A stretch of 64,000 bases of DNA, taken from the sequence record OR896837.1. One strand, written 5' to 3'. Origin of the DNA: Escherichia phage vB_Eco_mar004NP2. Below, one piece after another: positions 13,487-63,290 of the stretch. Positions within the stretch are counted from its first letter, which is position 1, and every line of letters starts with the position of its first letter. The notes beneath the pieces are model-generated. The model worked only from the letters and a program-made list of their open reading frames with translations. It was not told the origin of the DNA and did not search any database. The position numbers and the translations under genes are program-made.

Positions 13487-14246
13487 ACTGAACTGGAACG
13501 TAGAAGGTGTAACCGAGTCTCTGAAAGCAAAAGCCACTGCTCTGGGTGTTGCTGTAATCTCTCAAGAACAAGTAGCTGCTATCGCTGCTGAACTGGCTGC
13601 TGAAACTGGCAAAGACGTTACCGCTCGCTCTGTTGGCTCTAAGCTGCGTAAAGAAGGTTTTGAAGTACAAAAAGCTAACGAAGTACAGAAATCCCCGTGG
13701 ACTCCTGAGCAGGAAGCTGAACTGGTTGATTTCCTGAACGCTCATGCTGGTCAGTATACCTATGCTGAAATCGCTGCTGCTGTAGCTGGTGGTCAATTTG
13801 GTGCTAAGCAGGTACAGGGTAAGATCCTGAGTCTGGAAATGACCGCCTCTGTTAAACCAACTGAAAAAGCTGCTGCTGTTCGTTCCTTCACTCCTGATGA
13901 AGAAACCGATTTTGTTAATCAGGTTGTTGCTGGGGCTACTATTGAAGCTATCGCTGCTCACTTCGGTCGTAATATCAAGCAGATCCGTGGTAAAGCTCTG
14001 AGCCTGCTTCGTGAAGGTCGTATCGCTGCTATGCCGGTACAGGAAACTTCAAGTGCTAAAACTCGTGAAGATCTGTTAGAAGGTCTGGATCTGGCTAACA
14101 TGACTGTTGCTGAGATCGCTGAGAAAACTGGTAAATCTGAGCGCGGTGTTAAATCTATGCTGTCTCGTCGTGGTCTAGTTGCTAAGGACTATGATGGTGC
14201 TGCTAAGCGTGCTAAACTGGATGCAAAAGCTGCGGCTGCTGAATAA
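13479..14246 (+). CDS. Highly expressed protein with three internal ~50-aa repeats (function unknown, possibly DNA-binding)
   Basis: ORF track; strongly biased codon use (GCT/CTG/GGT/CGT); repeats built on TPEQEAELVDFL / TPDEETDFVNQV / TREDLLEGLDL; followed by a strong terminator. Confidence 0.6.
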   Translation: MSKLNWNVEGVTESLKAKATALGVAVISQEQVAAIAAELAAETGKDVTARSVGSKLRKEGFEVQKANEVQKSPWTPEQEAELVDFLNAHAGQYTYAEIAAAVAGGQFGAKQVQGKILSLEMTASVKPTEKAAAVRSFTPDEETDFVNQVVAGATIEAIAAHFGRNIKQIRGKALSLLREGRIAAMPVQETSSAKTREDLLEGLDLANMTVAEIAEKTGKSERGVKSMLSRRGLVAKDYDGAAKRAKLDAKAAAAE

Positions 14247-14263
14247 TCTGGTAAATTAAACCT

Positions 14264-14296
14264 AAGGGGAGGGGGCTATGCTCCTTCCCCTTTTTT
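14264..14296 (+). terminator. Rho-independent terminator
   Basis: 12-bp GC-rich stem (aaggggaggggg / ctccttcccctt) with 5-nt loop then TTTTTT. Confidence 0.65.
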
Positions 14297-14317
14297 GCAT
14301 TTAGAAGGCACGAAAGC

Positions 14318-15802
14318 GTGCAAAGGAGAATGACCTTGTTTAACGTGCAAGCTGTAGTGTTGAAGATGCTTCTTGCTTCTGAACAGAAGCAAATAGCATT
14401 GGAAACATTCTCAAAACTGCATAAAGATCATTTTAATGACGCTTTCTCCTCAATTTACCAAGCCGTCCAGAATTATTATAAAAAATATAACACAATGCCG
14501 TCCATTGACGCACTTATGCTTGAAGCTAATAGGAACGCCCGCCTTTCTCAAGCTCTAGTCGTCTTAGCTAACACTCAAATTCCAGAAGTGAGCATGGAAC
14601 AGGCACTTGAAGTCCTAGAGGCCGAATATACACAAGATTTATTCCTAAAGCTTCTAGAAACAGATGTGCTTCAAGATTTAACAATGCTGGATCAGGGAGA
14701 AATTCTCAACCGAGTTGCCTCCCTTCACTTAAAATTAGAAGAGAAAGTAACGAATACTGGAAAAGTATTCAACGCAGATAACATGCGTATTTTCCAGAGA
14801 GAAGAAGATACCAAACTGAACTTAATCGCTCTTGGTATTTGTAATGAGTTCGACGCTCAAATTGGTTTAGCTCGCACAGAAACGTTACTGCTTGGTGGTT
14901 GGCGTGGTACTGGTAAATCCATTATCTGTTCAAACATACAGGTTCAGCAATATTTGAATGGAGATATTGCTCCATACTTCTCAATTGAGATGAAAGAACA
15001 TGAAGTATTTAGACGTAATCTAGCCATGTTAGCTGGTGTATCAGCATTAGCAATGCGTAATAATACTCTAGAAGGTGCAGCTCTGTTGAGATTGGCCAGA
15101 ACTAGAGCTAGGATGTTCAACGGGGGTGAGGAGCTTTTCGATAACTTCGTTAAACAGTATACAATGGCTAAGATGAGTGATTTCTACGATATGGAGAGTA
15201 AGCTAATAGAAGGATATGAGCTACATACTCCTATGATTATTGTTTATGACCCTGAGCTGTCCATTACAACAGTTGACGTAGAATTAAATAAATTAGTTGC
15301 TAGATACGGAGATAAAGTTACAGTAGCTTTACTGGACTATATTAACCAAACCCGACTTCCAGACTCTAAAACCATTGATATGTATGACTGGAAAGAACAG
15401 ATGGTTGTCAGCTCGTCTTTCAAATCTATCTGCCAGAAACATAACGTGGCTGGTGTAGCTCCTTACCAGATTGATCAAGATGGTAGAACACGTATGTCAA
15501 AGGGGATTCTTGATTCCGCAGACATGGCTGCTAATCTTAATGCTGCAAAAGCTGATAATGGTCAAGGTGCTATTATGTTTGACTTCGTTAAGACCCGTTC
15601 TTCTGATAGCGTGAAGTTTATGCCTAAAATGAACTGGGAAACCCTGCGGATGGATAACACTATCAACCTAGCAATGGAAGATATATCTCAAATGGAAGCT
15701 GAGTTCGTTATCCCTATTGAGAAGGATAAGCCGGCTCAATCTAAACGTGCTAAGAAAGACAAAGCTGAAAATTCAACAGGTGAACAGGCCAGCGATATAT
15801 GA
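14318..15802 (+). CDS. DnaB-like replicative DNA helicase
   Basis: P-loop LLGGWRGTGKS and DnaB-like ALLDYINQ block; start GTG 14318 or ATG 14330 uncertain. Confidence 0.7.
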   Translation: MQRRMTLFNVQAVVLKMLLASEQKQIALETFSKLHKDHFNDAFSSIYQAVQNYYKKYNTMPSIDALMLEANRNARLSQALVVLANTQIPEVSMEQALEVLEAEYTQDLFLKLLETDVLQDLTMLDQGEILNRVASLHLKLEEKVTNTGKVFNADNMRIFQREEDTKLNLIALGICNEFDAQIGLARTETLLLGGWRGTGKSIICSNIQVQQYLNGDIAPYFSIEMKEHEVFRRNLAMLAGVSALAMRNNTLEGAALLRLARTRARMFNGGEELFDNFVKQYTMAKMSDFYDMESKLIEGYELHTPMIIVYDPELSITTVDVELNKLVARYGDKVTVALLDYINQTRLPDSKTIDMYDWKEQMVVSSSFKSICQKHNVAGVAPYQIDQDGRTRMSKGILDSADMAANLNAAKADNGQGAIMFDFVKTRSSDSVKFMPKMNWETLRMDNTINLAMEDISQMEAEFVIPIEKDKPAQSKRAKKDKAENSTGEQASDI

Positions 15803-16689
15803 GTAGAATAACAGAACTACTTGATCTGAAAGGCATTGAGTATAAAGACACAGGTGGGGACATCCTCATCTGTTGTCTCAATCCAGATCATGACGATAAA
15901 CATCCAAGTTTGCGTATTGATCCTGAAACAGGTATTATGCACTGCTTGAGTTGTGGCTTCGGTAAAGGTATACCGAGCATTTACCATTATTTTAATGAGA
16001 CTCAGTACCGACAGTCTCCAAGACTATCGCAGGTACGTAAAAAGATTTCAGAGATTAGGAATGGATCTACGAATCTTGCAATTCCTGAATCTGCTTACCT
16101 TTTCGAAGGTGATTTCCGAGGTATAAGTTCTAAGACCTTGAAGAAATATTTTGCTTTCCAACACCAAGCAGATTGGGAGGGCAGAATTGTATTCCCAATC
16201 ACAGATGCTGTTGGACGCAATATCCTATTTTTGGGTCGTTCTATAAACAGTTCTGCCCCTCCTAAATACTTAGTAAAACCAAAACAAGTTTCACCACCGA
16301 TTTTCCCTGTACGATATAATACTCCAGTTCTTATTCTAGTTGAAGGTATCTTTGATATGCTGAACCTAGAGGATAATGGTATAGACTATGCTTCTTGCTG
16401 CTTTGGTACACATCAGTTTACTTCGGATAACATTGCAGATAAGTTCAGTCCTTATATTATTGCTGGTGTAAAAGTTGTTGTTATCTTACTAGATAATGAT
16501 GCTTCTGGTAATAAAACTGCACAAGCATTGGCTAAGCTAATTCGTACAAAAACGCGTTTAACACCTGTAGTTGCTAACTTTCTCCTACCTGAAGGCAAAG
16601 ATCCAGGTGATTTAAACAAAGATGAAATTGATATGTTAGCAAAACGTATTGAAATTTTAGTTGCTGAATCGCTTAAAGATTTGGTATAA
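15799..16689 (+). CDS. DnaG-like DNA primase
   Basis: CHC2 zinc finger (CCLNPDHDDKHPSL...CLSCGFGKG), TOPRIM-like LVEGIFDMLNL and LLDNDASG; ATGA overlap with helicase stop. Confidence 0.8.
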   Translation: MSRITELLDLKGIEYKDTGGDILICCLNPDHDDKHPSLRIDPETGIMHCLSCGFGKGIPSIYHYFNETQYRQSPRLSQVRKKISEIRNGSTNLAIPESAYLFEGDFRGISSKTLKKYFAFQHQADWEGRIVFPITDAVGRNILFLGRSINSSAPPKYLVKPKQVSPPIFPVRYNTPVLILVEGIFDMLNLEDNGIDYASCCFGTHQFTSDNIADKFSPYIIAGVKVVVILLDNDASGNKTAQALAKLIRTKTRLTPVVANFLLPEGKDPGDLNKDEIDMLAKRIEILVAESLKDLV

Positions 16690-21545: not shown

Positions 21546-21629
21546 ATGATGTATAATAATATACATAAATTTGAGAGAGAAAGTTTCGGATTGATAAGAA
21601 AGTCCGAAGCAGAAAAATAAAAATTTTAG

Positions 21630-27011: not shown

Positions 27012-27454
27012 TTAAAATTAAATTAACTCATCCAGATTGTATGCCTAAGATTGGTTCCGAAGATGCCGCAGGTATGGATCTGCGAGCATTCTTTGGTACA
27101 AACCCTGCTGCAGATTTACGTGCTATTGCGCCAGGCAAATCCCTAATGATTGACACCGGTGTCGCGGTAGAAATTCCGCGAGGTTGGTTCGGTTTGGTGG
27201 TTCCTCGTAGCTCTTTAGGTAAGCGCTATTTGATGATTGCAAACACCGCAGGGGTGATCGACTCAGACTATCGTGGTACTATTAAGATGAACCTCTATAA
27301 TTACGGTTCTGAAATGCAAACTCTGGAGAATTTCGAGAGACTTTGTCAGCTAGTGGTATTGCCACATTACTCAACTCATAATTTTGAAATCGTTGATGAG
27401 TTAGAAGAGACTGTACGTGGAGAAGGAGGATTTGGAAGTTCAGGAAGTAAGTAA
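27008..27454 (+). CDS. dut: dUTP diphosphatase (dUTPase)
   Basis: 148 aa; dUTPase motifs AAGMDLRA, PRSSLG, GVIDSDYRG. Confidence 0.9.
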   Translation: MIKIKLTHPDCMPKIGSEDAAGMDLRAFFGTNPAADLRAIAPGKSLMIDTGVAVEIPRGWFGLVVPRSSLGKRYLMIANTAGVIDSDYRGTIKMNLYNYGSEMQTLENFERLCQLVVLPHYSTHNFEIVDELEETVRGEGGFGSSGSK

Positions 27455-27478
27455 TCTACATATAAAATAAATAATAAA

Positions 27479-27513
27479 CCCCAGTGGATTTTGTCCACTG
27501 GGATTTTCTTTTA
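27479..27513. terminator. Bidirectional rho-independent terminator at the early/late boundary
   Basis: 9-bp stem cccagtgga / tccactggg with ttttg loop, T-runs on both strands, between convergent dut and tail-fibre genes. Confidence 0.65.
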
Positions 27514-28158
27514 TTGTGATACTAATTGTACCTTTAATTGCTCAAGCTCTTTCTCTAGATCTTCAATCCGTTTAATAAGATCTTGCACAACATGCATAGT
27601 GTCAAGAAGCATTGGAGTTGTATCTAATTCCTTTTGCTCCTGCTCTATTCCGTCATCATTATAAAATTTTCTAGTTTTTACATAAAGTGGTTCTATAGTC
27701 TCTACTTGCTGAGCAATAACCCCACGTCGGACACGAGATTTTTCATCGTTATTATATACAAAGGATTGGAATTCTAATCCTTTTAATACCTCGATGGACT
27801 TAGTTGCGTCTATAGCCTTAATATCATGCTTTAAGCGAGAATCAGATACAGCATTTAATTGCAAAGTATAGGTTGCTGAAGCACCTGGCCACCAAGAATA
27901 AAAATAAATACTATTATTATTCGGCTGAATTTTTAAACGCACACCAAATTTATTATCATCATCTCCCGCTACCTGCCAACAAGAATCTGCAAATGAGCCT
28001 AAGTCATTATGAATTAATCCAAAATGTGCAGATGTCTTATACCCTGCGGAAGAAGACTGGGAACCGCTCAATATACTATTAAAGTTAAATGTACTACCTA
28101 TATTGACCTCGTTCTGAGAAAGAGTACCTTGTACCCAGCCAGTCTGAGACCACGCCAT
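27511..28158 (-). CDS. Tail-fibre C-terminal segment with intramolecular-chaperone (S74-type) domain; likely 3' part of a frameshift-split fibre gene
   Basis: SDSRLKHDIKAI autocleavage-type motif then coiled-coil C-terminus; 17 open in-frame codons upstream of the ATG. Confidence 0.6.
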   Translation of the reverse strand: MAWSQTGWVQGTLSQNEVNIGSTFNFNSILSGSQSSSAGYKTSAHFGLIHNDLGSFADSCWQVAGDDDNKFGVRLKIQPNNNSIYFYSWWPGASATYTLQLNAVSDSRLKHDIKAIDATKSIEVLKGLEFQSFVYNNDEKSRVRRGVIAQQVETIEPLYVKTRKFYNDDGIEQEQKELDTTPMLLDTMHVVQDLIKRIEDLEKELEQLKVQLVSQ

Positions 28159-28177
28159 GCCAGTAACTAATCTAGCT

Positions 28178-28927
28178 TTAAAACGATCCGTTACAAAATC
28201 CCCATTTATCTACAAGCTGGGCGGAATTCGATTTACCGGTAGATTTATTGTCTATTAGTAGTTCAGTAGAGTAGGTGCCACCAATAGTAGCTTTAGCTCG
28301 TAGTGTACTTACAGCCTCACTACTAGTACCTACTTTATACTCAGATAGTACACTCCCGCCATAAACAGTAGTACCAGTATTAGGTTTGACAGCATCACCA
28401 CTAATAACACTCCACGAAGTCTTTGCAGCCACGAACCCACCAGAAGCACGGATTACCCAGACACCTATAAAGCTGTTTGGAATAATAGTACCTTTTATTC
28501 CATAACGCCCATAAACAGGGTCCGCTAAGTTTGCATCAAAACTAAATCCGTATTGGTTATCAGGATTAACTACGGCGAATGATTTAGATGCACCTCCAGG
28601 AGCGGCACCTAAGCCGTTTTCACCACCAATCGCCCCAATAAGACCAAATCTAGATGAATATCTATTAAGCGCTTCTTCATATGCACCAGCAATAGCGCCA
28701 GGAAAACTACCAGTAATATTGGGTGCTGCAGCTTCTGATATTGAACCAGCTTGACCAGCATCCCCCCCCCCCCCACCGTCACCACGAGCGAATAACCCTT
28801 TGATTGAATTTAGTTGCACACCATTACGATCTGGGACGCGGAAAGTAGTGGTACCATCTCCCGTAGAATATTTCCCACGTTGTCCTACATCTGCTAACCA
28901 AACTGAATCATCTATAGCTCCAACCAT
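28178..28927 (-). CDS. Tail-fibre middle segment with phage tail-collar-type domain and poly-Gly tract
   Basis: Frame is open a further 53 codons upstream of its first ATG with no start codon; the collar motif SDGQLLNRADWPELW lies upstream of the Met, TTFRVPDRNG downstream. Confidence 0.55.
   Translation of the reverse strand: MVGAIDDSVWLADVGQRGKYSTGDGTTTFRVPDRNGVQLNSIKGLFARGDGGGGGDAGQAGSISEAAAPNITGSFPGAIAGAYEEALNRYSSRFGLIGAIGGENGLGAAPGGASKSFAVVNPDNQYGFSFDANLADPVYGRYGIKGTIIPNSFIGVWVIRASGGFVAAKTSWSVISGDAVKPNTGTTVYGGSVLSEYKVGTSSEAVSTLRAKATIGGTYSTELLIDNKSTGKSNSAQLVDKWGFCNGSF
28762..28774. repeat. 13-nt C/G homopolymer inside the tail-fibre coding sequence
   Basis: Plus-strand C13 (G13 on coding strand) encoding GDGGGGGD in frame. 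Confidence 0.9.
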
Positions 28928-28986
28928 TTGTGCATACGCCCAAAGTTCAGGCCAGTCAGCCCTGTTAAGAAGCTGCCCATCAGAAA

Positions 28987-29283
28987 CTACCTCATAAGGT
29001 TGAATATACGCACGGCTATCTCGAAGATGAAAATCCCCACCCCGTAGTTCATAACACCATTCATTGTGGGTCCTACTGTGCCAGTATTAAGTTTGTTCTC
29101 CACCCAACGCTTAGTTGCGGCATCATAGTCACTAACAGGATCTCCAGCAAGAGGGGTAGATCCAATAGGACGCACATTTAGCCATGCTGCACGGTCTGCT
29201 AAGTCACTCAGGTTATTATTTTTATTAAGTGACTCATTTTTAAGTTTTGTAATATCCGTAGGAATTACTGTTTTAGTTACCAT
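28987..29283 (-). CDS. Tail-fibre N-terminal segment (frameshifted relative to the downstream collar-domain frame)
   Basis: Fibre-like N-terminus (DYDAATKRWVENKL); last ~15 residues look like out-of-frame read-through. Confidence 0.5.
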   Translation of the reverse strand: MVTKTVIPTDITKLKNESLNKNNNLSDLADRAAWLNVRPIGSTPLAGDPVSDYDAATKRWVENKLNTGTVGPTMNGVMNYGVGIFIFEIAVRIFNLMR

Positions 29284-29292
29284 TATAAAACC

Positions 29293-29571
29293 TTATGCCC
29301 ATACTCTAAGAGGCTGTTCTAGCTGAACTATAAAAGGCTCGAAGGATTCGTAAGTAAAGGATTCATCAAGAATCCTTACATTAATATAATACCCTTCATT
29401 ACGGATGCATCTAGGTTCCTCATCACCTAGCGGAGAGATTTCAGTATAAGTATATCCAATTTCGTCAAGCATTATTTGGTTTTGCAAATTTTCATTAGTA
29501 TCCCACTCTATTTTTAAGAGAAAATCTTTATATGCTGATTTATCCGTGAATTTTAGGATTATATCTCTCAT
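29293..29571 (-). CDS. Hypothetical protein between the two tail-fibre genes
   Basis: ORF track; ATGA overlap with upstream gene. Confidence 0.5.
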   Translation of the reverse strand: MRDIILKFTDKSAYKDFLLKIEWDTNENLQNQIMLDEIGYTYTEISPLGDEEPRCIRNEGYYINVRILDESFTYESFEPFIVQLEQPLRVWA

Positions 29572-31625
29572 ACATACTCCTTCATTTGTCTATCAGTTAG
29601 TTCCTTATGCCAGATTCTAAAGTTTCTAACGTGCCCGAAAAGATGACGTTCGCCCCTAGTTGTTTGTCCTCCAATCCTTATAGTAGCCGTTGATTGTATG
29701 TATCTCCATTCCGTTTTTGTTTCGCTTGATATTCTGGCATTACTTACACAGCAAGTATTGTAATCACTCTTTACTCTCATTCCCATGATCATCTTTTTTA
29801 GTTTTGCATTCTCGTAAACCCTTCTGTTTGATTTACCTATATCGCAATAAGGGAAACCATCATTATCGCCTTCGGCAGATCCGAAAGCAAGAATAATAGC
29901 CGCTTCGGTTTGATGACCTCTGGTATCAAAAACACGTGGCGCTGCACTTGGCGTTATACTCCAGTTTTTATGAGCTTCCACAAGTACTGTAAACGGCAAA
30001 TTGTAAAGGTTGTTTTTTATTGGTAATGTGACCATATCGCTTGCCCGTGTTACTGGAGTCTCTTCTGTAATAATAAACGATGAAGCGCACGCCCCGCCTT
30101 CAACTTGAGGGGTAGCTACCTGTAAGTACTCTCCACCAGAATAAGTGCCAGGTGAAACAGGTGGAGCAATTTGGATCTGAGAGCTAACCATATTATCAAT
30201 AGCTTCAGATTGATATGTAACCTCGAAATAAATCCATCCATTAGATTCTTTCTCCGCTCGGGCGGTTATTCTTGCAGCCCCTACTTCCGTTTTTCTAATG
30301 GACATATCTGTTATATTAAGATATGCATCTGCTAGATAAAAATATGCGGATCCGTCATATCTTTCAAATCTTATACGACATTGTATATTAGCACTATCGC
30401 TTTTTACACGACATGATGTTGTAACATACTTTTCAGTTCCGGTAACATCGACACCTCTTCCTCCTGAAATCGCAGCGATATTCATTGCCGTATTTGTCCC
30501 AATTTTTTCGTCCTTTATTTGAAACCGCCCATAAGTAAATCCAAACTCATCAACACCACTTTCTGTTATAGTTACACTTGTTGTAGCTTCCCACTTAGAT
30601 GGCGTAAGTGAGTTAAGATGATAGTTAGTTCTTTGCCCCTCAATGAGCAAACCATCCTTTTCAAATCTAGGTTCATTAATCCCCGCAACAGTTAATACAC
30701 CTGATTTATTAATATATGTCGCAGTTGATGCACGTGTAAAGCTAACAATCTTGTCACTGGGCAGTGTTATTTCCTCATCACCGACTGTTATTTTTTTTTT
30801 ATAGTCTGGCGCAAAGCCGGTGATCATATCTAGAGAATCGTTAAACGGTATCCATACATCTGGAAGAGGTTGAATGTCGGGGGTAGAATTAGCAGCAGCT
30901 TCTGATCTATCAGCCTCAGTTTTTGAACGATCGGCTTCAGTTTTAGCAGTATTAGCACTATTAGCAGCATTAGTAGCTTGTTTTCCTGCTTCAGTAGCAG
31001 AATTAGCAGCACTAGTTGCAGAATTAGCAGCTTGGTTTTTTAGCGTGGTAGTTTCTGTTATCGCGCTATTCTTAATGCCTTGTGTGTCTGTTTTTAACTG
31101 CGCAACATCTGCCTTTATAGCTGTTGTCTCTGTTACAGCACTGTTTTTAATGGCCTGAGTATCTGATTTTAGCTGCTCAACATCTGATTTTAAGCCTTGA
31201 ATAGTAGTTACTGACTGACTAGCTGAAGTTGCGGAACTAGCTGCGTTATTCTCACTAGCTTTGGCTTTAGTCTCACTAGCTTTGGCTTTAGTCTCACTAG
31301 CTTTTGCATTAGTCTCGGATACTTTAGCAGCGGATGCAGATGTTGCAGCTTGTCTAGCGAATGTTTCTGCTTCATCCCTAAAACCTTTAGAATTGGCAGC
31401 AGACGCAGCAGCATTAGTCTCACTAATTTTAGCGTTAGTTTCGCTAATTTTTGCAGCCGCAGCAGATTTAGCAGCAGCCTCTATAGAAGATACTAACTCA
31501 TTAGCAGTAATAGAGCTAATAGAATTTCCAAGAGTTACTGTGTATCTAGGAAATTTACTAGCAGTAGCTTTAGTATCATCAATATTTAATATTTGTTGTA
31601 CAATAATCTTAGTAGTTATTGCCAT
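29568..31625 (-). CDS. L-shaped tail fibre protein (T5 pb1-like N-terminus, Ala/Ser/Thr-rich repeat shaft, distinct C-terminal domain)
   Basis: N-terminus resembles T5 pb1 as remembered; repeat shaft SETNAKASETKAKASETKAKASE; 685 aa, far shorter than T5 pb1. Confidence 0.7.
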   Translation of the reverse strand: MAITTKIIVQQILNIDDTKATASKFPRYTVTLGNSISSITANELVSSIEAAAKSAAAAKISETNAKISETNAAASAANSKGFRDEAETFARQAATSASAAKVSETNAKASETKAKASETKAKASENNAASSATSASQSVTTIQGLKSDVEQLKSDTQAIKNSAVTETTAIKADVAQLKTDTQGIKNSAITETTTLKNQAANSATSAANSATEAGKQATNAANSANTAKTEADRSKTEADRSEAAANSTPDIQPLPDVWIPFNDSLDMITGFAPDYKKKITVGDEEITLPSDKIVSFTRASTATYINKSGVLTVAGINEPRFEKDGLLIEGQRTNYHLNSLTPSKWEATTSVTITESGVDEFGFTYGRFQIKDEKIGTNTAMNIAAISGGRGVDVTGTEKYVTTSCRVKSDSANIQCRIRFERYDGSAYFYLADAYLNITDMSIRKTEVGAARITARAEKESNGWIYFEVTYQSEAIDNMVSSQIQIAPPVSPGTYSGGEYLQVATPQVEGGACASSFIITEETPVTRASDMVTLPIKNNLYNLPFTVLVEAHKNWSITPSAAPRVFDTRGHQTEAAIILAFGSAEGDNDGFPYCDIGKSNRRVYENAKLKKMIMGMRVKSDYNTCCVSNARISSETKTEWRYIQSTATIRIGGQTTRGERHLFGHVRNFRIWHKELTDRQMKEYV
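31251..31313. repeat. Three tandem 21-bp repeats inside the tail-fibre gene
   Basis: ctcactagctttggctttagt x2 plus a degenerate third copy; encodes the KASETKA heptad-like repeats. Confidence 0.7.
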
Positions 31626-32047
31626 TATCTAGTTACCCCATCACTGATAAATACTTTACCCTCCATTATACGAAAAGAGCTAATAGCTGATCCTATGACA
31701 TCTCGTGTCATAATTATATCATAGTATCCTGCAAAACGTTGGCGAGGGTTATACTTATCTCTCTCTTTGGTAGCTTTTTCACCAATATTATCTACCGCCT
31801 CTACAGGTAAACTTATAGCTATAGCACCTTGAGCAGCATCAATAATTTTAGTAGTAAAAGATGCCAAAGTTTCCGCGTTCTCATCAAGCCCCGCCTTTAT
31901 AGTACCCCTTAGGGAATACCCTGTTAAGTTAACAGGGGTATTTGTAGGTGGATAAGTACTATCATCAACATCTAAGAATTGCATCATTAGACCATAAGGT
32001 ACTTTTTCATCTATTACTAAGTCTATAACTCTATTTTCAGTACTCAT
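31625..32047 (-). CDS. Tail collar protein (T5 p132-like by size and position)
   Basis: 140 aa, immediately upstream of the L-shaped fibre gene. Confidence 0.55.
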
Positions 32048-37683: not shown

Positions 37684-40600
37684 TTAAGAATTTCCTAATG
37701 TTTTCAGACTAGTACCGTTCTCATTCAGAGCTAATTCCACTGCGTCTCTTAGAGCACTACTATTACTAGAAGCAAACTCTCTAAAACTTGCAGCATCCAT
37801 AGCACTAATATTCAGGATGATAGGTCTTCCTGAAGTTGAGTTAGATGAGGTTTTTAGCTCATCATTAGGCGTAGCTTTCATAGGAACCATAGGGGTAACT
37901 ACTTCTGTACCATGCTCACCCATTTGATAGCTAACCCCAGGGTACATATTACCACCTTCGGCACGCGGCACAAATGAATTAGCATTACCAATACCTTGAT
38001 CACCACGTACATAAGATAGTTCTCCAGCATTAGCAGACATAGATACATCAATGTTCTTCTGACGCTCTCCAAGAGTTAAATAACTAGTGGTATCAGCTCC
38101 AGAATCTGCAATACTTGACATACTAGAGGCAGAGGATGCCTGCGCTAATGCCAGAGCACCTGCTAATCCTGCCGCTACCATCAGAGGGATAGAGAACGGG
38201 TATGGTACAGCTGTTGCTGCCTGCATAACTGCTACTGCAGTTTGGATGATAATCCGCTTCTTAGCTGCATCTTGTTGAATCTTCAGCTTTTCAGCTTCTA
38301 GCTTCTTCAATTTAGCTTTAGATGCTTCTGATTTACCATCACGTTTCTGCTCCGCTGCGATAGCTGCATCAATAGCACTAACCTGTTGACTAGTACTATA
38401 CTGAATCATAGAAGATACAGTTTGCATGCCAGAAGCAATCAAGGAGGTAGTATCTAGGGATCCCTGAGAGAACTGAATCATAGCGTTAGTTAAGTTACCC
38501 ATACTTTGAGCCACAGCGGTTGCTTCAGAATTTAATTCAGATAGCTTAGAGATTGCTTGGTCATAAGAAGCCATTCTATTTTGCATATCAGCAAAATCTT
38601 TATCTTCTCCAGATAATCCCGTTGTAGGAGTGTACACAGCACCTACAGAGGATCCTACCTGTTGTTGCATTTGAGCATTACGTTGCGCCGTTAAAGCAGA
38701 CATTTGAGCCCTTGTCTTAGCTATTTCAGCATTCCAGCGCATTTGCTCGTTAGCATTACCTTTGGTAAGTTCCTTCATCTGAGTATAAAAATCTAACTGC
38801 ATTTCCATTTTTTGCATTTCCCCTGCCAGAGGGAACATGGAAGTTAGAGTATTTTCAAAGGCTTCTTGCCTTTTACTGGTCATTTCAGCTTGCTGATCCT
38901 GACGGAATTTCCATATTTCACGTTCAATTTGAGCTTGAGAACGTCTAGACTGTTCAGCCTCTTTCTGTTTATCAGCCTGTTTTGTATACCATTCGTACTT
39001 CTCTTTTTCAATGGTCAATTCAAGATTTAACTGTGCTAGACGATACTGAGTATCTGTCATAGTACGGTTATTTAAGAGAGCTATCTCACGATCTACGCCA
39101 AGAATTTTATCTGTGTAATCCTTGACCTTCTTCTGAGCTTCCATACCCTGATTAGTAAGTTTAAGTTTCTCCAGCTGAATTTTTTCAATTTCTTTCTCAA
39201 CAGCTTTATTTCCCTGGTTTGTTTGAAGAACACGGCGTAAAGCAGCTTCTTGCTCTTCTAACTGTTGGAGTTCTAAACGTCTACCAGCTTCCTGAGCCTT
39301 TTCCTTATCCTTAGTTTGATTATACACATCAGCTATTTTCTGTTGAACTGCTAACTGATTTTTAGTTTCATTACCAGTTAGTTTAACATACTCAGATAGA
39401 GCCTGAGATGCAGTTTTCATTTCAGACAGGGTGTTATAACCCAGGTTAAGGTTTTTAACATATTCATCGGCACTCTTACCGGTACCTAAGGATAGAGATT
39501 CTATATTTTTTATAGCATCTGCCAAAGTAGCACTAGTTTTAGCAGCAGTATCTGTATTCTGAGCAACGTTCTGTATATCATTAGCTAAGTCACTAGCCGT
39601 TTTCTTAGTCTGATTGTACGCTTTCTGCTGCTCAGTTAGTCCTTTTAATACAGTAGAGTTAAAATCGTATACAGCATCAGGATCAGTAGTATCTCTCTGT
39701 AGATTAATTTGCTTCTGAAACTCTGGACTAGCCTTTGCAGCAGCGGCACCAGCAGCTTGATACGCTGATTTCCAAGCATTGAGATTCTCTGTAGAATCCT
39801 CTACTTCCTTACCAAGTCTAGTTACTTGTAGACCCATAGCTGCAGTTTCTGCTACAAATTGCTTATTGGCCTCCGAAGCACCTGCTGCTACAAGACCAAC
39901 AGGAATACCTTCACCAACTTGACGTATAGCTAATTTTGTATAGAAATCTGCTTGTTCCATTCGTTTATCAAACTCAGATTTTAGCTTATTACGCTTATCA
40001 AGAGATTCCTTATACATATCTAGAGCTTTATTATAGCCTTCTTCAGAAGCAGCTAAACTTAAAGCAACAGCACCAACGTTGGTAGGGTCTATCTGTCTAT
40101 TAGTTTTTTCTTGGGCCCTAGCTGCTTCAGCAGATATAGAAGCCTGAGATGTATAAAATACTGTGTTGATAGCATCAATTACTGGCCCTAAATACTTAGC
40201 AGCAGCTTGTTGTATTTTTCTTAGTGCAGCATCTGCATTAGCAGCAAATTGCTCCCACGGAGTTGCACGTAGTACTTCATCTAGGTAGCCAAAACGCTTA
40301 GTAGATTCAGCAATTACCGCGTTAGCGTATGCTTGTTGCTTCTGGAAAGTGGTAAGACTATTAACATTATATGTTATACCTGTGTTTGCAGCATTTAACT
40401 GTTTAGCATAATCAGCGTATGCATCATTAAGACGGATGGTGACACCCAGCTCATCCAGAAGTTCGATTTCTTGTTTAGATACGCCCTTAATTACACGGTT
40501 AAGTGCATCAGTCATATCAATGCCAAGAACAGCAGCCGCACGACGAGCTACTAAACCAAATTTATTAAGTTGTTCGGCATCAAATCCATAAGCAGATGCT

Positions 40601-41367
40601 GAAGATGCCTGTCTCATTGCTTCCTCAAAAGAAATAGCATATCCAGCAGCTTCTTGTAGTGATCTAGCAAGGGTCTGAACAGGAGTACCTGTCTGAGTAC
40701 CTACTATAACACCAAATTTTTCTAGACGATTTAGCTGATCACCTAGTTTAAGTTGTTCAAATGCTGATTGCAAAACGAAGATGTTGGAAGCAAGAGCTGC
40801 GTACATAATAGGTAGACTACCACCGATCTTAGCCATTGCCGCAAAATCACGAGTTGCACCACGTGCTGAACCAGAAGTATTACCAATAGCTCTAGAAGCT
40901 CTACCAGCGGCACCAGCAGTATCATTAAAACCCCTAGCTGTGCCACCTAATGCTCTATTAGTATCATATAATCTATCCTGGACTTTTTCTGTTGCAGCTG
41001 CAACATCATTACCTATTGTTTTAACAGATCTAGAAACTCCATCGAATCCAATTTCTAGTTTATCTGTCACTTCAATAAGCTGGATAGCTAGGTAATCTAG
41101 TTTATCACCAATATCATTAATAGATTTGGTGATACCAGCCATACCCCTACTAGCTTGCATTTTAGTAAGACTTTTTGCTGCTCTGTCTGCTGCCCTCTCA
41201 ATGGAATAAAGAGTTCTGGGCATTTTACCTAACTGCTCATTTGTCAGTTCGGAAGCAGCAGCAGCATTTTCCAACGCATCAGATACGTTTTCAATAGACT
41301 TTGCAGTACGAGTTGCTCCCTTCTGTTTAACGTCTATTAGTAATTCTCGTATTAGCTTATCAGTCAT
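37684..41367 (-). CDS. Tail tape measure protein (T5 pb2-like)
   Basis: 1227 aa, long coiled-coil-rich protein with hydrophobic segment near the C-terminus. Confidence 0.85.
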   Translation of the reverse strand: MTDKLIRELLIDVKQKGATRTAKSIENVSDALENAAAASELTNEQLGKMPRTLYSIERAADRAAKSLTKMQASRGMAGITKSINDIGDKLDYLAIQLIEVTDKLEIGFDGVSRSVKTIGNDVAAATEKVQDRLYDTNRALGGTARGFNDTAGAAGRASRAIGNTSGSARGATRDFAAMAKIGGSLPIMYAALASNIFVLQSAFEQLKLGDQLNRLEKFGVIVGTQTGTPVQTLARSLQEAAGYAISFEEAMRQASSASAYGFDAEQLNKFGLVARRAAAVLGIDMTDALNRVIKGVSKQEIELLDELGVTIRLNDAYADYAKQLNAANTGITYNVNSLTTFQKQQAYANAVIAESTKRFGYLDEVLRATPWEQFAANADAALRKIQQAAAKYLGPVIDAINTVFYTSQASISAEAARAQEKTNRQIDPTNVGAVALSLAASEEGYNKALDMYKESLDKRNKLKSEFDKRMEQADFYTKLAIRQVGEGIPVGLVAAGASEANKQFVAETAAMGLQVTRLGKEVEDSTENLNAWKSAYQAAGAAAAKASPEFQKQINLQRDTTDPDAVYDFNSTVLKGLTEQQKAYNQTKKTASDLANDIQNVAQNTDTAAKTSATLADAIKNIESLSLGTGKSADEYVKNLNLGYNTLSEMKTASQALSEYVKLTGNETKNQLAVQQKIADVYNQTKDKEKAQEAGRRLELQQLEEQEAALRRVLQTNQGNKAVEKEIEKIQLEKLKLTNQGMEAQKKVKDYTDKILGVDREIALLNNRTMTDTQYRLAQLNLELTIEKEKYEWYTKQADKQKEAEQSRRSQAQIEREIWKFRQDQQAEMTSKRQEAFENTLTSMFPLAGEMQKMEMQLDFYTQMKELTKGNANEQMRWNAEIAKTRAQMSALTAQRNAQMQQQVGSSVGAVYTPTTGLSGEDKDFADMQNRMASYDQAISKLSELNSEATAVAQSMGNLTNAMIQFSQGSLDTTSLIASGMQTVSSMIQYSTSQQVSAIDAAIAAEQKRDGKSEASKAKLKKLEAEKLKIQQDAAKKRIIIQTAVAVMQAATAVPYPFSIPLMVAAGLAGALALAQASSASSMSSIADSGADTTSYLTLGERQKNIDVSMSANAGELSYVRGDQGIGNANSFVPRAEGGNMYPGVSYQMGEHGTEVVTPMVPMKATPNDELKTSSNSTSGRPIILNISAMDAASFREFASSNSSALRDAVELALNENGTSLKTLGNS

Positions 41368-41380
41368 GTTTTATTTTTCC

Positions 41381-41415
41381 CAATAAAAAAGGCTCTGGGC
41401 AAATCACCCAGAGCC
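41381..41415 (-). terminator. Rho-independent terminator/attenuator immediately upstream of the tape measure gene
   Basis: Stem ggctctggg / cccagagcc then TTTTTTATT on the minus strand; shares the sequence TTTTTTATTGGGAAAAATAAA with the element at 46361-46388. Confidence 0.55.
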
Positions 41416-41450
41416 AAGCCTCATCGTGGAACGCCCATTGGAGGAAACTT

Positions 41451-41819
41451 TTACCGTGCACGAGATCTAGCATGTGGCTTAACGTTAGGAATCCTTCCGT
41501 TTTGCGGTTTATGCTTCTCAGCACGTTTACGTGCAGCATCTACAGCTTTAGCATCAAATATATTGATAATGTGTAGAACAAATTCTTTCTCTATAGGATC
41601 AGTAATCCCATAAATATCAAATAAAACACCTAGAGCAGCCTTATCTTTACCTATAAAGATAGGAAAGTCACCTGGTATGAAGCAGTCAATTAGACTGTTA
41701 TAAATATTCATACTAGTAGCCACAATAGGTGGAAAGTCTTCAAGTTCAACAGGCATGGCCTTAGGATCAGGCTCTATACCCATTGATTCACAAAGTATTA
41801 AATATTGTTGTTTAGTCAT
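41451..41819 (-). CDS. Hypothetical protein (possible tail assembly chaperone)
   Basis: Position between tail tube and tape measure genes; no motif evidence. Confidence 0.45.
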   Translation of the reverse strand: MTKQQYLILCESMGIEPDPKAMPVELEDFPPIVATSMNIYNSLIDCFIPGDFPIFIGKDKAALGVLFDIYGITDPIEKEFVLHIINIFDAKAVDAARKRAEKHKPQNGRIPNVKPHARSRAR

Positions 41820-41880
41820 TTTAGATGCTGAGCTTTTAATACACTTATCTGCAAAATCAGCAACAGCATCTAGGAGTTCT

Positions 41881-42300
41881 TTACGCTTTTGGGCTACGAA
41901 AAGTGTCTAAGTGGAACACTGTCTGGTTGATCCAAGAATCAAACGCAGCAGAGTTCTGCATGAGCATTACAGCATTATCGCGGCTAAAAGGAACTTCAGT
42001 AGCAGGATCAGCATCTGTTTCAATCAGCATCAGTTTTTCAACGTCACCTACAGTCAAACCGGTCCAACCTTTAATAGCTGCGTCAACGAAGGCTTCAATG
42101 AACTTATCATCATCCTGTACCTGAATCAAAGTACCATTAACCCATTCATCGCGTTTAGCAGAAGAAATAACACGTTTAGAGGTAGCACGAGACATATAGT
42201 TAAGTTCTAATTTAAAGTTCGGCATACCTGGGTAGGAAAGAGTAATAGTACGAGTATCAAGAGTAATATCTTTTAAATTAATCATTTTTAATTTCTCCAA
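41881..42300 (-). CDS. Hypothetical protein (possible tail assembly chaperone)
   Basis: Position only. Confidence 0.45.
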   Translation of the reverse strand: MEKLKMINLKDITLDTRTITLSYPGMPNFKLELNYMSRATSKRVISSAKRDEWVNGTLIQVQDDDKFIEAFVDAAIKGWTGLTVGDVEKLMLIETDADPATEVPFSRDNAVMLMQNSAAFDSWINQTVFHLDTFRSPKA

Positions 42301-51237: not shown

Positions 51238-51408
51238 AGAATCTCCTACACCCCATGTAGAGCATTAATTTTTCTTGTTTACGTTCTATTATGGGAGAAG
51301 TTCTCCCGATCAATGAATATAGTATACATAATCGTATCGAATTTGTAAAGGGGATTTTAAAATGCAGGAATGGGATACCAACTGAGTAGTATCCCTTCCT
51401 ATACTTAT

Positions 51409-62298: not shown

Positions 62299-63060
62299 AT
62301 GAGGCTATATAAACCAGGTAACGCAACCGTCTTAAAAGGTGCGCTGCGTAACCTGCTGGACGGTAGCAGAACAACCAGCATTAAACATTTTATTAACAAG
62401 GCTGAAACTATTCACCAAAACTTTTTTGGTGATTTCGATGCCTATGATATGAATAGTTTTCTACCGTTATATAAACAAGGGGCAACGCTTGTTTTATATA
62501 ATCAAGATTATCAATTGCTCACTAGTCGAGGGCCGGATACTGATTTCATAATCGTAAAAGGTAGCACAGTAAAAGCCTATGATACTGGGGCAGGCTTAGA
62601 AGTTTTTTCAATAGAAAATTATGAAGCCAACCCCAATGATCTTTATGATATTGAAAATTTTCTTGATTCATTTTGGCGTTATTTATCAGTTGGCTGGAAT
62701 CGGTCGGATTGTGACGGGTATCGTTTCGCGGCTGTAATGGCCTTTGATGATAACGGTAATTTTTTGTTACCGTCGGAAGTGTACCCTTATGTATATGAGG
62801 GGGATATTGAAAGCGCGGGCTTTTCTTTCTGGAAGGAGGAAGATCAGCCTATTGACAACACGGAAAAACATGCTGTAAATTCTAACACTCAAAGCGTTAA
62901 CACTCAAACTACTGAAAACAAAGGAAATAATACCATGACCAAGATCGCTAATATCGTTGCCGCTAATAAATCCGCTGTTGTAAATGCTGCAAAACTGGAA
63001 GCTGGCAAAATTGCATTGACTCAAATCACGAAAGTAGCGGCTAAAAACCGCCGTTTATGA
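62299..63060 (+). CDS. Hypothetical protein (253 aa)
   Basis: ORF track; SD gggagg upstream. Confidence 0.55.
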   Translation: MRLYKPGNATVLKGALRNLLDGSRTTSIKHFINKAETIHQNFFGDFDAYDMNSFLPLYKQGATLVLYNQDYQLLTSRGPDTDFIIVKGSTVKAYDTGAGLEVFSIENYEANPNDLYDIENFLDSFWRYLSVGWNRSDCDGYRFAAVMAFDDNGNFLLPSEVYPYVYEGDIESAGFSFWKEEDQPIDNTEKHAVNSNTQSVNTQTTENKGNNTMTKIANIVAANKSAVVNAAKLEAGKIALTQITKVAAKNRRL

Positions 63061-63290
63061 TTAAAGGTTATATTGATACGCCGATTGGTCGGGTAGTTAT
63101 TGCTAACCTGCTGAGCGTAGCGGTTGACCAGTACGCCCCGAATAACCAGAAAGCGAAAGCGGTAGCAGGCGCAGCTATGGAAGCGGCAATGCTAGAAATG
63201 GTGCAAAGTTTTAACATCGCTGAAATGATTGATGAAATGGTGAAAGGTATCGATATTTCTACTTTTACCACTAGCACCGAAAGCGAGTAA
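63057..63290 (+). CDS. Hypothetical protein (77 aa)
   Basis: ORF track; ATGA overlap with upstream gene. Confidence 0.45.
   Translation: MIKGYIDTPIGRVVIANLLSVAVDQYAPNNQKAKAVAGAAMEAAMLEMVQSFNIAEMIDEMVKGIDISTFTTSTESE

Follow-up and report, generated by a model that had tools for sequence, protein, structure and literature searches.

Two private frameshifts in T5-like phage CPL00229 divide its distal lateral tail-fibre gene into three open reading frames

In the T5-like phage CPL00229, the gene for the distal part of the lateral tail fibre, a putatively T-shaped protein with dual receptor-binding domains, is broken into three open reading frames (ORFs) by two single-nucleotide changes that are private to this isolate. 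The gene, recognized by homology, occupies positions 27511..29283 on the minus strand of the window, the whole 64,000-nt stretch of DNA that we analysed. Its frame breaks probably represent a genuine loss-of-function allele that arose by ordinary mutation, a reading that we rank first, with a sequencing or assembly artefact second; we infer that the indels are real mutations rather than read errors. ORF 1 (98 aa, 28987..29283, minus strand) begins with 84 native N-terminal residues and then runs out of frame for 14 more before its stop; ORF 2 (249 aa, 28178..28927, minus strand) covers the collar/Gp12-like receptor-binding domain 1 and the next conserved stretch; and ORF 3 (215 aa, 27511..28158, minus strand) contains ~104 residues of the mature fibre tip (T5-like receptor-binding domain 2) and a C-terminal intramolecular chaperone. 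ORF 1 and ORF 3 share a frame, from which that of ORF 2 differs.

Two upstream partners of the same fibre are encoded on the minus strand, a 92-aa ORF (29293-29571) and the 685-aa proximal fibre gene (29568-31625); a comparison of the distal and proximal fibre proteins for domain duplication found no repeats common to both. On the other side, a bidirectional intrinsic terminator (27476..27506), shared with the convergent dUTPase gene, is the sole terminator-like site in the scanned region 27400-29700. The DNA of the distal gene is 99.2-99.4% identical to that of phages SPLA5b, mar004NP2, KS_S14 and PMBT29. Sequence comparison identifies mar004NP2 orf135 and IrisVonRoten gp24 as its orthologs and shows homology with the distal half of DT57C LtfA; amino acids 14-582 of the intact distal-fibre protein align to residues 526-1072 of chain d in PDB 8HQZ with an E value of 6e-135.

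In close relatives the ORF is intact, and the disrupting changes are derived. The annotated relatives with an in-frame polyG tract (SPLA5b, mar004NP2, PMBT29 and JLBYU40) each have a single coding sequence of 589-590 aa, and a 91-aa peptide spanning the downstream break (junction 2) is read without a change of frame in every one of the 70 phage records with a homolog, at identities from 100% down to ~41%. Both results bear out the proposal of the initial annotation that the collar ORF and the chaperone ORF are parts of one gene, and they answer its question of whether homologs encode tip and chaperone as one polypeptide. By contrast, only two sources contain the exact 98-, 249- and 215-aa products: the GenBank entry for CPL00229 (locus tags CPL00229_CDS..., proteins WWD13551-3) and the Logan assembly of sequencing run SRR27112525. 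A related-locus search of genome contigs gave no match.

For the junctions themselves, the comparison set comprised SPLA5b, mar004NP2, KS_S14, PMBT29, JLBYU40 and an IMG/VR contig, with an ENA gut contig added for junction 1 only. At junction 1 (29030..29038, minus strand), GGGGATTTT contains a run of four G residues (29035-29038) where all seven relatives have five; this private 1-nt deletion causes a -1 frame change and lies 830 nt upstream of junction 2. At junction 2 (28205-28207, minus strand), CPL00229 has AAA where the six relatives have AA, a private 1-nt insertion that changes GATAATGG to GATAAATGG, shifts the frame by +1 and places TAA 28180-28178 in frame. The break is where the initial annotation had put it, and the spacing described there is also found in the sequence: ORF 2 ends at TAA 28180-28178, ORF 3 starts in the +1 frame at ATG 28158-28156, and the gap between them is 19 nt, or the 22 nt of the earlier description when counted from the first base of the stop. 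The frame of ORF 3 is open for exactly 17 codons 5' of its ATG (ATA 28209 to GGC 28159), again as described, and is closed by TAG 28212-28210. The remedy that had been suggested, removal of a G, is arithmetically sufficient to fuse the frames, but the relatives differ from CPL00229 by the extra A at 28205-28207 and not in the G-run. The coordinates given for the sequence from which the G was to be removed (28197-28205) need correction as well, as TGGGGATTTT occupies 28195-28204 and the extra A falls one base 5' of this 10-mer. Likewise, the predicted fusion peptide LVDKW-DFVTDRF does not correspond to the ancestral one, which reads ...LVDNGDFVTDRF... across the junction and not ...LVDKW-DFV....

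ORF 3 carries a Peptidase_S74/intramolecular chaperone core (Pfam PF13884; 27688..27846, minus strand), which matches residues 105-157 of the 215-aa product with an E value of 1.1e-12 and a score of 48.5 bits against a cut-off of 22. The core begins at SDSRLKHDIK (27846-27817), the predicted autocleavage site, in which S105, D106 and K110 are invariant in 13 homologs, and it aligns to the C-terminus of DT57C LtfA and to PDB 6F45. The description of the 215-aa ORF as a chaperone therefore holds for this domain but not for its first ~104 residues, which belong to the mature fibre tip. A protein-database search with the 215-aa ORF yielded only 12 proteins, most of them truncated, and did not recover the cluster to which the query itself belongs. 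An AF2 monomer model of the ORF (13-sequence alignment) had a pLDDT of 54.6 and is uninformative because the fibre is an obligate trimer; a Foldseek search of this model against the PDB gave no match with E <0.08. S74 chaperones act in cis on the polypeptide to which they are fused, as in endosialidase and T5 pb1. Fusion of chaperone to fibre is found in every relative but not in the window, where the frame break precedes the domain by 104 codons (cis action of these chaperones is summarised in PMC4728585).

Could the three frames nonetheless yield functional products? We find it scarcely credible that the 215-aa ORF forms a true cistron of its own for a chaperone or tip protein that acts in trans. 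It has an ATG start only 19 nt past the upstream stop, and some database proteins with an S74 domain are just 184-371 aa long, but the short proteins that we examined end at contig or record ends or at a nonsense codon. There is no Shine-Dalgarno (SD) sequence or promoter-like site before ATG 28158, no independent, SD-preceded gene at the equivalent methionine was found among homologs, and this methionine is an internal, conserved residue (…MAWS[QE]TG…) of the longer proteins. Moreover, a product starting there would begin with mature-tip residues, which precede the SDSRLK cleavage motif. Programmed or leaky recoding, with a -1 shift at G_GGG in junction 1 and a +1 shift at a 'shifty stop' in junction 2, UUU_UAA_A (28182-28177), would instead produce full-length fibre from all three frames, and it has some appealing features: if tRNA-Gly slipped by -1 on GTG_GGG_A, the result would be precisely the ancestral peptide (…GVGDF…), the 249-aa ORF closes with TTT TAA A, where tRNA-Phe could re-pair in the +1 frame on UUU in the manner of prfB and enter the 215-aa frame, and the outer two ORFs are in register with one another. 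We nevertheless regard recoding as very improbable, and comparison with relatives has already largely refuted it. Conservation of the two-frame layout is a defining property of programmed frameshifts. No homolog needs a shift, given the continuity of junction 2 in all 70 records and the G5 run at junction 1 in all seven relatives; the layout is absent from homologs and therefore not conserved, and the alleles are private to one isolate. On direct reading, UUU_UAA is without an SD-like stimulator 3-6 nt upstream and no X_XXY_YYZ heptamer is present. In addition, hardly any product could be expected from two independent events that are each of low efficiency, and the +1 product would replace NGDFVTDRF by KWGFCNGSF within a conserved stretch. 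For recoding, the locus implies nothing new. The initial annotation had also pointed to a 9-mer shared by the two junctions. GGGGATTTT is indeed present at both: it occurs three times in the window (minus strand 28195-28203 and 29030-29038, and plus strand at 51350), compared with 0.54 expected, a count of three being reached in 1 of 100 shuffles. Repair of junction 1 requires an added base and repair of junction 2 a removed one. Because these shifts are opposite in sign, and because both copies encode Gly-Asp-Phe in frame in relatives (the copy at 28195..28203, minus strand, specifying G-D-F of ...VDNGDFVTD... in the gene frame), the 9-mer is not a common slippery or recoding site.

An artefact of sequencing or assembly seems to us unlikely, though far less so than recoding. 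The phage itself would then carry G5 and AA in an undamaged gene, and base-calling, Tadpole read correction or polishing would have introduced the indels. Such an origin is consistent with the location of every private indel in a short repeat or homopolymer and with two further 1-nt homopolymer differences in the window, at 63048 and 14296; G-rich sequence is, moreover, hard for two-colour Illumina chemistry. Against it, Illumina consensus indels at G5 or A2 are very rare, and only about six of the ~264 homopolymers of at least 5 bases in the window differ from relatives, with a concentration in one locus. The CPL00229 reads are reported as Illumina NovaSeq 2x150 data, assembled with Shovill at a coverage of at least 20x (PMC10893117), and the same pipeline gave an intact 583-aa ortholog in the sister phage Baret (CPL00220). 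A different assembler also gives an identical sequence: the Logan assembly of SRR27112525, a run whose platform we take from the source paper, is 100% identical to the window over the whole distal gene, including G4, G13 and AAA, although any processing of the reads before deposition would make the two assemblies less than fully independent, and an error would be inherited by Logan if those reads were already corrected. Nor is the assembly full of errors in general: only three truly coding-breaking 1-nt indels occur in the 64 kb, two of them in the distal fibre gene, and this 1.77-kb gene has four indels and zero substitutions, far above background (our own Poisson estimate is ~1e-3 or lower). 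Genuine mutation, the reading that we prefer, has its own difficulties. An AA pair that gains a third A to become AAA is no typical hot spot for slippage, which counts against it. Within one 4-kb locus there are two frameshifts and three in-frame slippage changes and no substitutions. This clustering exceeds what simple relaxed selection predicts, as one inactivating event would satisfy selection.

One way to account for the cluster is that the lateral-fibre locus in this group of T5-like coliphages holds contingency tracts that switch or tune fibre expression by slippage, the candidates being the polyG tract of the distal gene and a run of A in the proximal one. The five private events, including two frameshifts next to GGGGATTTT copies, would then reflect locally slippage-prone or templated mutation and not independent random events. 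We consider this improbable, but the clustered slippage changes and the variable polyG tract are the only part of the locus that we think worth pursuing. The tract consists of 13 G residues (28762..28774, minus strand; C13 on the plus strand) and is in frame (7+6). Among near-identical genes it is 6, 7, 8, 10 or 13 G long, lengths of 7, 10 and 13 being in frame and lengths of 6 and 8 out of frame, with the G8 allele (P0012) deduced only from the start of the protein; scans of viral and metagenome sequences added only G7 alleles. The proximal fibre gene carries a private expansion from A7 to A10 (30791-30800). PolyG tracts act by slippage in Campylobacter phages.

Together, the two private frameshifts turn a normally single 589-aa ORF into three, and translation should stop after 98 codons. 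Because the downstream ORFs are without a ribosome-binding site, the receptor-binding domains and the cis-acting C-terminal chaperone should both go unmade, and the lateral fibres of the virion would be missing their distal part, which binds O-antigen. Such a loss would be tolerated, and possibly favoured, on E. coli BW25113, a rough K-12 strain, because CPL00229 was isolated and grown on this host, where T5-like phages can infect through the central receptor-binding protein without lateral fibres. We infer that the phage makes no fibre and that the changes have survived on account of its rough host. There is precedent for such loss: lateral tail fibres (LTFs) are not needed on rough strains and are often lost there, and during growth on rough C600, LTF function disappeared spontaneously in ~30% of DT571/2 clones (PMC4728585). 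On a clinical E. coli strain, CPL00229 reportedly gave a lysis zone but no plaques and no suppression of growth, a phenotype that has many other possible causes.

Among known systems, a close counterpart is Gp24 of phage IrisVonRoten (Bas32; bioRxiv 10.1101/2024.09.12.612763), a 'T-shaped' distal fibre with a Gp12-like RBD1, a T5-like RBD2 and an intramolecular chaperone. We adopt these domain names for Gp24-type fibres from the BASEL paper, and pairwise alignment supports full-length homology of the intact allele to Gp24 across RBD1, RBD2 and chaperone. The order of the locus is also the same, with an assembly protein, proximal fibre, small ORF, distal fibre and convergent dut. The intact mar004NP2 allele is identical to Gp24 over amino acids 271-589 except for one substitution (K/R) and over amino acids 1-130 except for three; junction 2 lies within the part conserved between them. 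Residues ~131-270, the variable part of RBD1, differ, so receptor specificity probably differs from that of Gp24. IrisVonRoten has an intact, single 574-aa ORF without a polyG tract, whereas the copy in the window is broken twice. In DT57C LtfA (PMC4728585; PMC10713586; PDB 8HQZ), residues 526-1072 are homologous and end in the same autocleavable pfam13884 C-terminus, but there this region and the tail-attachment part make up a single protein of 1076 aa. For the branched LtfA/LtfB fibres of DT57C and DT571/2, function is often lost on rough K-12 hosts, and LTF-defective mutants of these phages, like CPL00229, give a lysis zone without plaques on O-antigen hosts (PMC4728585); the one sequenced spontaneous DT57C mutant has a 3-bp in-frame deletion and not frameshifts.

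Phage lambda offers a parallel to the genetic change. Lambda PaPa reportedly lacks side tail fibres through a 1-nt deletion in stf, as Hendrix and Duda are said to have found in 1992. As in CPL00229, a single-base frameshift splits the side-fibre gene into adjacent ORFs, and lambda PaPa was kept on rough K-12, where the fibre is dispensable, being needed across O-antigen (Ur-lambda and PaPa are discussed in the BASEL paper). Lambda belongs to another phage family and its fibre is unrelated, whereas CPL00229 has two frameshifts and an intramolecular chaperone. Overlapping adjacent frames in a tail gene also recall the lambda G/GT arrangement, but that layout is conserved across phages and includes a slippery heptamer, whereas the layout in CPL00229 is private to one isolate. 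With K1F endosialidase and T5 pb1, the window shares PF13884, the SD-x-R-x-K motif, a C-terminal coiled-coil helix and, in intact homologs, the cis arrangement; it differs in that a frameshift cuts the domain off from most of the fibre, so that neither expression nor activity of the chaperone is expected.

More broadly, the three 'tail fiber protein' entries WWD13551-3 are pieces of a single gene, which the annotation should mark as disrupted. CPL00229 comes from a therapeutic phage library, and a broken O-antigen-binding fibre would explain lysis from without and the failure to propagate on a clinical strain. Isolation on rough K-12 can fix fibre-less variants, and host-range data obtained with isolates of this kind may for this reason understate wild-type potential.

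Two further candidates were considered and rejected. Nanopore homopolymer errors, suspected from the CPL locus tags, are ruled out by the source paper, which states Illumina NovaSeq. A T5 to T6 change at 14296 had at first suggested a frameshifted essential helicase and with it a poor assembly. It does not interrupt coding sequence, because its place is the T-tail of an intrinsic terminator (14264-14292), in whose loop the annotated helicase ATG of the relatives falls. As to other copies of the distal gene, Baret uses different codons at the motifs and gives no direct motif control. Further broken alleles exist: KS_S14 has a G6 tract, P0012 implies G8, and a Logan contig carries a Trp-to-stop change.

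The distal fibre gene of this T5-like phage (Tequintavirus) is probably an ordinary disrupted gene of known kind, without a new recoding signal or gene arrangement; the frame break noted near 28205 comes from a 1-nt insertion in a tail-fibre gene that is normally a single ORF. The lateral tail-fibre genes adjoin a convergent dUTPase gene. Along the minus strand lie a 140-aa ORF (31625-32047) at the position of the annotated lateral tail fibre assembly protein of phage IrisVonRoten, the 685-aa proximal fibre gene (29568-31625), a 92-aa ORF (29293-29571) between the proximal fibre and ORF 1, and the three pieces of the distal fibre gene: ORF 1 (98 aa, 28987-29283), ORF 2 (249 aa, 28178-28927; stop TAA at 28180-28178) and ORF 3 (215 aa, 27511-28158; ATG at 28158). 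The only terminator-like site of the scanned region is 3′ of ORF 3, the last ORF, and neither a Shine-Dalgarno (SD) motif nor a promoter-like site above background precedes the ATG at 28158. The proximal fibre, 685 aa here, has 796 aa in SPLA5b, mar004NP2, PMBT29 and IrisVonRoten and 557 aa in KS_S14, the variation being confined to an Ala/Ser/Lys-rich repeat region near the N-terminus.

Over 1.84 kb, the region shares 99.2-99.4% identity with Salmonella phages SPLA5b and PMBT29 and Escherichia phages vB_Eco_mar004NP2 and KS_S14, and 96.9% with JLBYU40; SPLA5b, mar004NP2, PMBT29 and JLBYU40 each have one annotated CDS of 589-590 codons. Called from the alignment, the whole-window indel lists and a motif census, the differences from relatives within the gene number four. 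Two are in frame: a private contraction of (GCA)3 to (GCA)2 at about 29190, which turns DRAAAW into DRAAW near the N-terminus, and a polyG expansion at 28762-28774 (minus strand) from G7 in most relatives to G13. The others are the loss of 1 nt at junction 1, between ORFs 1 and 2 (29035-29038, G5 to G4), and the gain of 1 nt at junction 2, between ORFs 2 and 3 (28205-28207, GATAATGG in relatives and GATAAATGG here). Because these indels are of opposite sign, ORF 1 and ORF 3 are in a common frame and the middle piece alone is displaced. The 9-mer GGGGATTTT occurs on the minus strand at 28195-28203 and 29030-29038; in relatives the two copies are 828 nt apart and both encode Gly-Asp-Phe in the gene's frame.

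The initial annotation proposed that ORF 2 and ORF 3 were once one polypeptide, and the single-ORF relatives support this idea, as do all 70 records that match a 91-aa peptide spanning junction 2, used as a tblastn query against 50,697 phage records. In every one the peptide is in a single frame, at identities from 100% to about 41%, with other phage groups among them. The ORF 2 stop, the ORF 3 ATG and the shared 9-mer are present as described, and exactly 17 open codons precede the ATG, bounded on their upstream side by TAG 28212-28210. The superfluous base, taken to be a G, is by comparison with relatives an A one base 5′ of the G-run, and the ancestral peptide is ...AQLVDNGDFVTDRFKARLVTGMAWSQ... 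rather than the suggested fusion ...LVDKW-DFV.... The 10-mer near junction 2 exists, 1-2 nt away from its proposed position. An independent, SD-preceded gene starting at the ORF 3 Met, which would have argued against fusion, was looked for in homologs and not found; there, this Met is conserved and lies inside the protein (…MAWS[QE]TG…). A search of a large protein collection gave some short proteins with a Peptidase_S74 (S74) intramolecular chaperone, and none of those examined on long contigs is an independent gene. That of phage SR02 is cut by the record end, another runs off the contig start, and one from Logan SRR30025142 is an ortholog with a Trp-to-stop codon.

Residues 14-582 of the intact protein align with one chain of the DT57C LtfA structure (PDB 8HQZ_d residues 526-1072, E 6e-135). 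Gp24 of IrisVonRoten is a ‘T-shaped’ distal fibre with a Gp12-like receptor-binding domain (RBD1), a T5-like RBD2 and a C-terminal chaperone (BASEL extension paper, bioRxiv 10.1101/2024.09.12.612763). The intact allele is identical to Gp24 except for three substitutions in residues 1-130 and one (K/R) in residues 271-589, whereas residues about 131-270, the variable part of RBD1, are divergent. Junction 1 falls at codon 84, where the fibre enters the collar/RBD1 region. Junction 2, at codon 374, is in the conserved part, with about 104 residues between it and the predicted cleavage motif farther downstream, and ORF 3 would therefore comprise part of the mature tip together with the chaperone. 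Its S74 domain (residues 105-157, beginning SDSRLKHDIK) bears out its description as an ORF that carries the chaperone domain; it is not a free-standing chaperone, since a substantial mature-tip part is also there.

Ribosomal recoding across the junctions would offer another way to join the ORFs. At junction 1, slipping by −1 on G_GGG would restore the native peptide, and UUU_UAA_A at the 3′ end of ORF 2 would allow a prfB-like +1 slip into the ORF 3 frame. However, the two-frame layout occurs in one isolate only and in no homolog, neither a heptameric slippery site nor an SD-like stimulator at proper spacing is present, and two low-efficiency events in series would leave negligible product, making this explanation highly improbable. 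The indels could also be technical artefacts. CPL00229, a Tequintavirus from the Citizen Phage Library, was isolated with E. coli BW25113 as host and sequenced from Illumina NovaSeq reads (2x150), with Tadpole correction and Shovill assembly at 20x or more (PMC10893117); the proteins of the window (WWD13551-3, WWD13555, WWD13601) have CPL00229_CDS locus tags in a 98,746-bp GenBank record. An independent Logan assembly of run SRR27112525 has the same 98/249/215 arrangement and matches the window at 100% identity across the entire gene and at each of the locus's five private sites, and the ortholog in sister phage Baret (CPL00220), from a common pipeline, is intact at 583 aa.

Single-base indels, listed for the whole window against two relatives, are few. 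Besides those of junctions 1 and 2 (29038 and 28207), there is a private loss in an A-run at 63048 (AAAAAAGCG in relatives, AAAAACCG here), which splits a 330-aa DUF7566-family gene into 253 and 77 aa (ORFs 62299-63060 and 63057-63290) and whose 253-aa product is found in the Logan data too; a non-coding change from T5 to T6 in the T-tail of a terminator at 14296; and intergenic indels at 21559 and 10250. About six of the 264 homopolymers of 5 or more bases differ from relatives. Homopolymer errors are not widespread in the assembly, and its indels are concentrated in the fibre locus. Given this low load and this concentration, we consider the frame-breaking indels probably real mutations and an artefactual origin unlikely.

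Real mutation of a lateral fibre is plausible from what is known of its function. T5-like lateral fibres, which bind O-antigen, are not needed for infection of rough strains (bioRxiv 10.1101/2024.09.12.612763, among others). About 30% of DT571/2 clones from growth on rough C600 had spontaneously lost lateral tail-fibre function, and the lateral tail-fibre mutants of that study cause spot growth inhibition on O-antigen hosts and form no plaques (Golomidova et al., PMC4728585). BW25113 is rough; on clinical strain BPRG 1486, CPL00229 gave a lysis zone without plaques or growth suppression, and Baret propagated (PMC10893117). The distal fibre gene is independently broken in other assemblies: in KS_S14 (G6, split annotation), in the split gene of protein P0012, whose start implies G8, and in a T5-like phage on Logan SRR30025142 contig L013, where an in-frame stop (1329-1331) replaces the conserved Trp of ...GVWVIRASGGF... 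and splits the ortholog into 266 and 256 aa. Among textbook cases, laboratory lambda with its stf frameshift is the nearest parallel.

Within 4 kb, the fibre genes carry five private repeat-slippage changes (A7 to A10, (GCA)3 to (GCA)2, G5 to G4, G7 to G13 and AA to AAA), with zero substitutions in the distal fibre gene relative to mar004NP2; in the adjoining 12 kb the ratio is one indel to twelve substitutions. The window's two longest homopolymers, of 13 and 10 bases, both belong to this locus. The A10 run (30791-30800, proximal fibre gene; A7 in five relatives) is a private expansion that keeps the frame, lengthens the protein by one Lys (DYKKKIT versus GYKKIT) and is reproduced in the Logan assembly. 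Both frameshifts lie 0-2 nt 5′ of the GGGGATTTT copies (post-hoc estimate P about 0.01), and the change of G5 to G4 makes copy 1 match the 10-mer TGGGGATTTT of copy 2. Selection does not fully explain this clustering, because a single inactivating hit would satisfy it. Relaxed selection on hypermutable repeats is a possible cause, as is mutagenic recombination-associated synthesis at a mosaic locus; directed slippage, or a contingency tract, is a doubtful explanation of the cluster as a whole. The polyG tract itself, inside ORF 2 where the variable RBD1 segment has its boundary, is a possible contingency tract. Its length varies between 6 and 13 in genes that are nearly identical: G6 in KS_S14, G7 in mar004NP2, PMBT29, an IMG/VR contig and an ENA gut contig, G8 in P0012 (deduced from the protein), G10 in SPLA5b and G13 here. 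JLBYU40 has GGGGGAG at this site, and IrisVonRoten lacks the tract. This variable tract is the sole lead from our work on junction 2 that merits further study.

Elsewhere, patches at 38000-42000 and 14000-16000 are highly divergent from relatives that are otherwise ~99.5% identical (identity is about 94% across 38.9-43.2 kb, and the 14-16 kb bin has 32-39 substitutions), and this sequence mosaicism suggests recombinational exchange. The terminator with the T5-to-T6 difference in its T-tail is a strong intrinsic one (stem 14264-14292), and the relatives' annotated ATG for a DnaB-like helicase (14279) sits in its loop. The 507-aa helicase annotation is probably over-extended, the real start likely being GTG 14318 or ATG 14330. 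At about 51099 (68460 in its own record), mar004NP2 is missing a C present in both the window and SPLA5b, and its endonuclease gene, 675 nt long in SPLA5b, is thereby split and annotated as two CDSs. At about 4197, between two Sir2-like genes, an intergenic (AT)n repeat falls 10 nt short of its length in SPLA5b.
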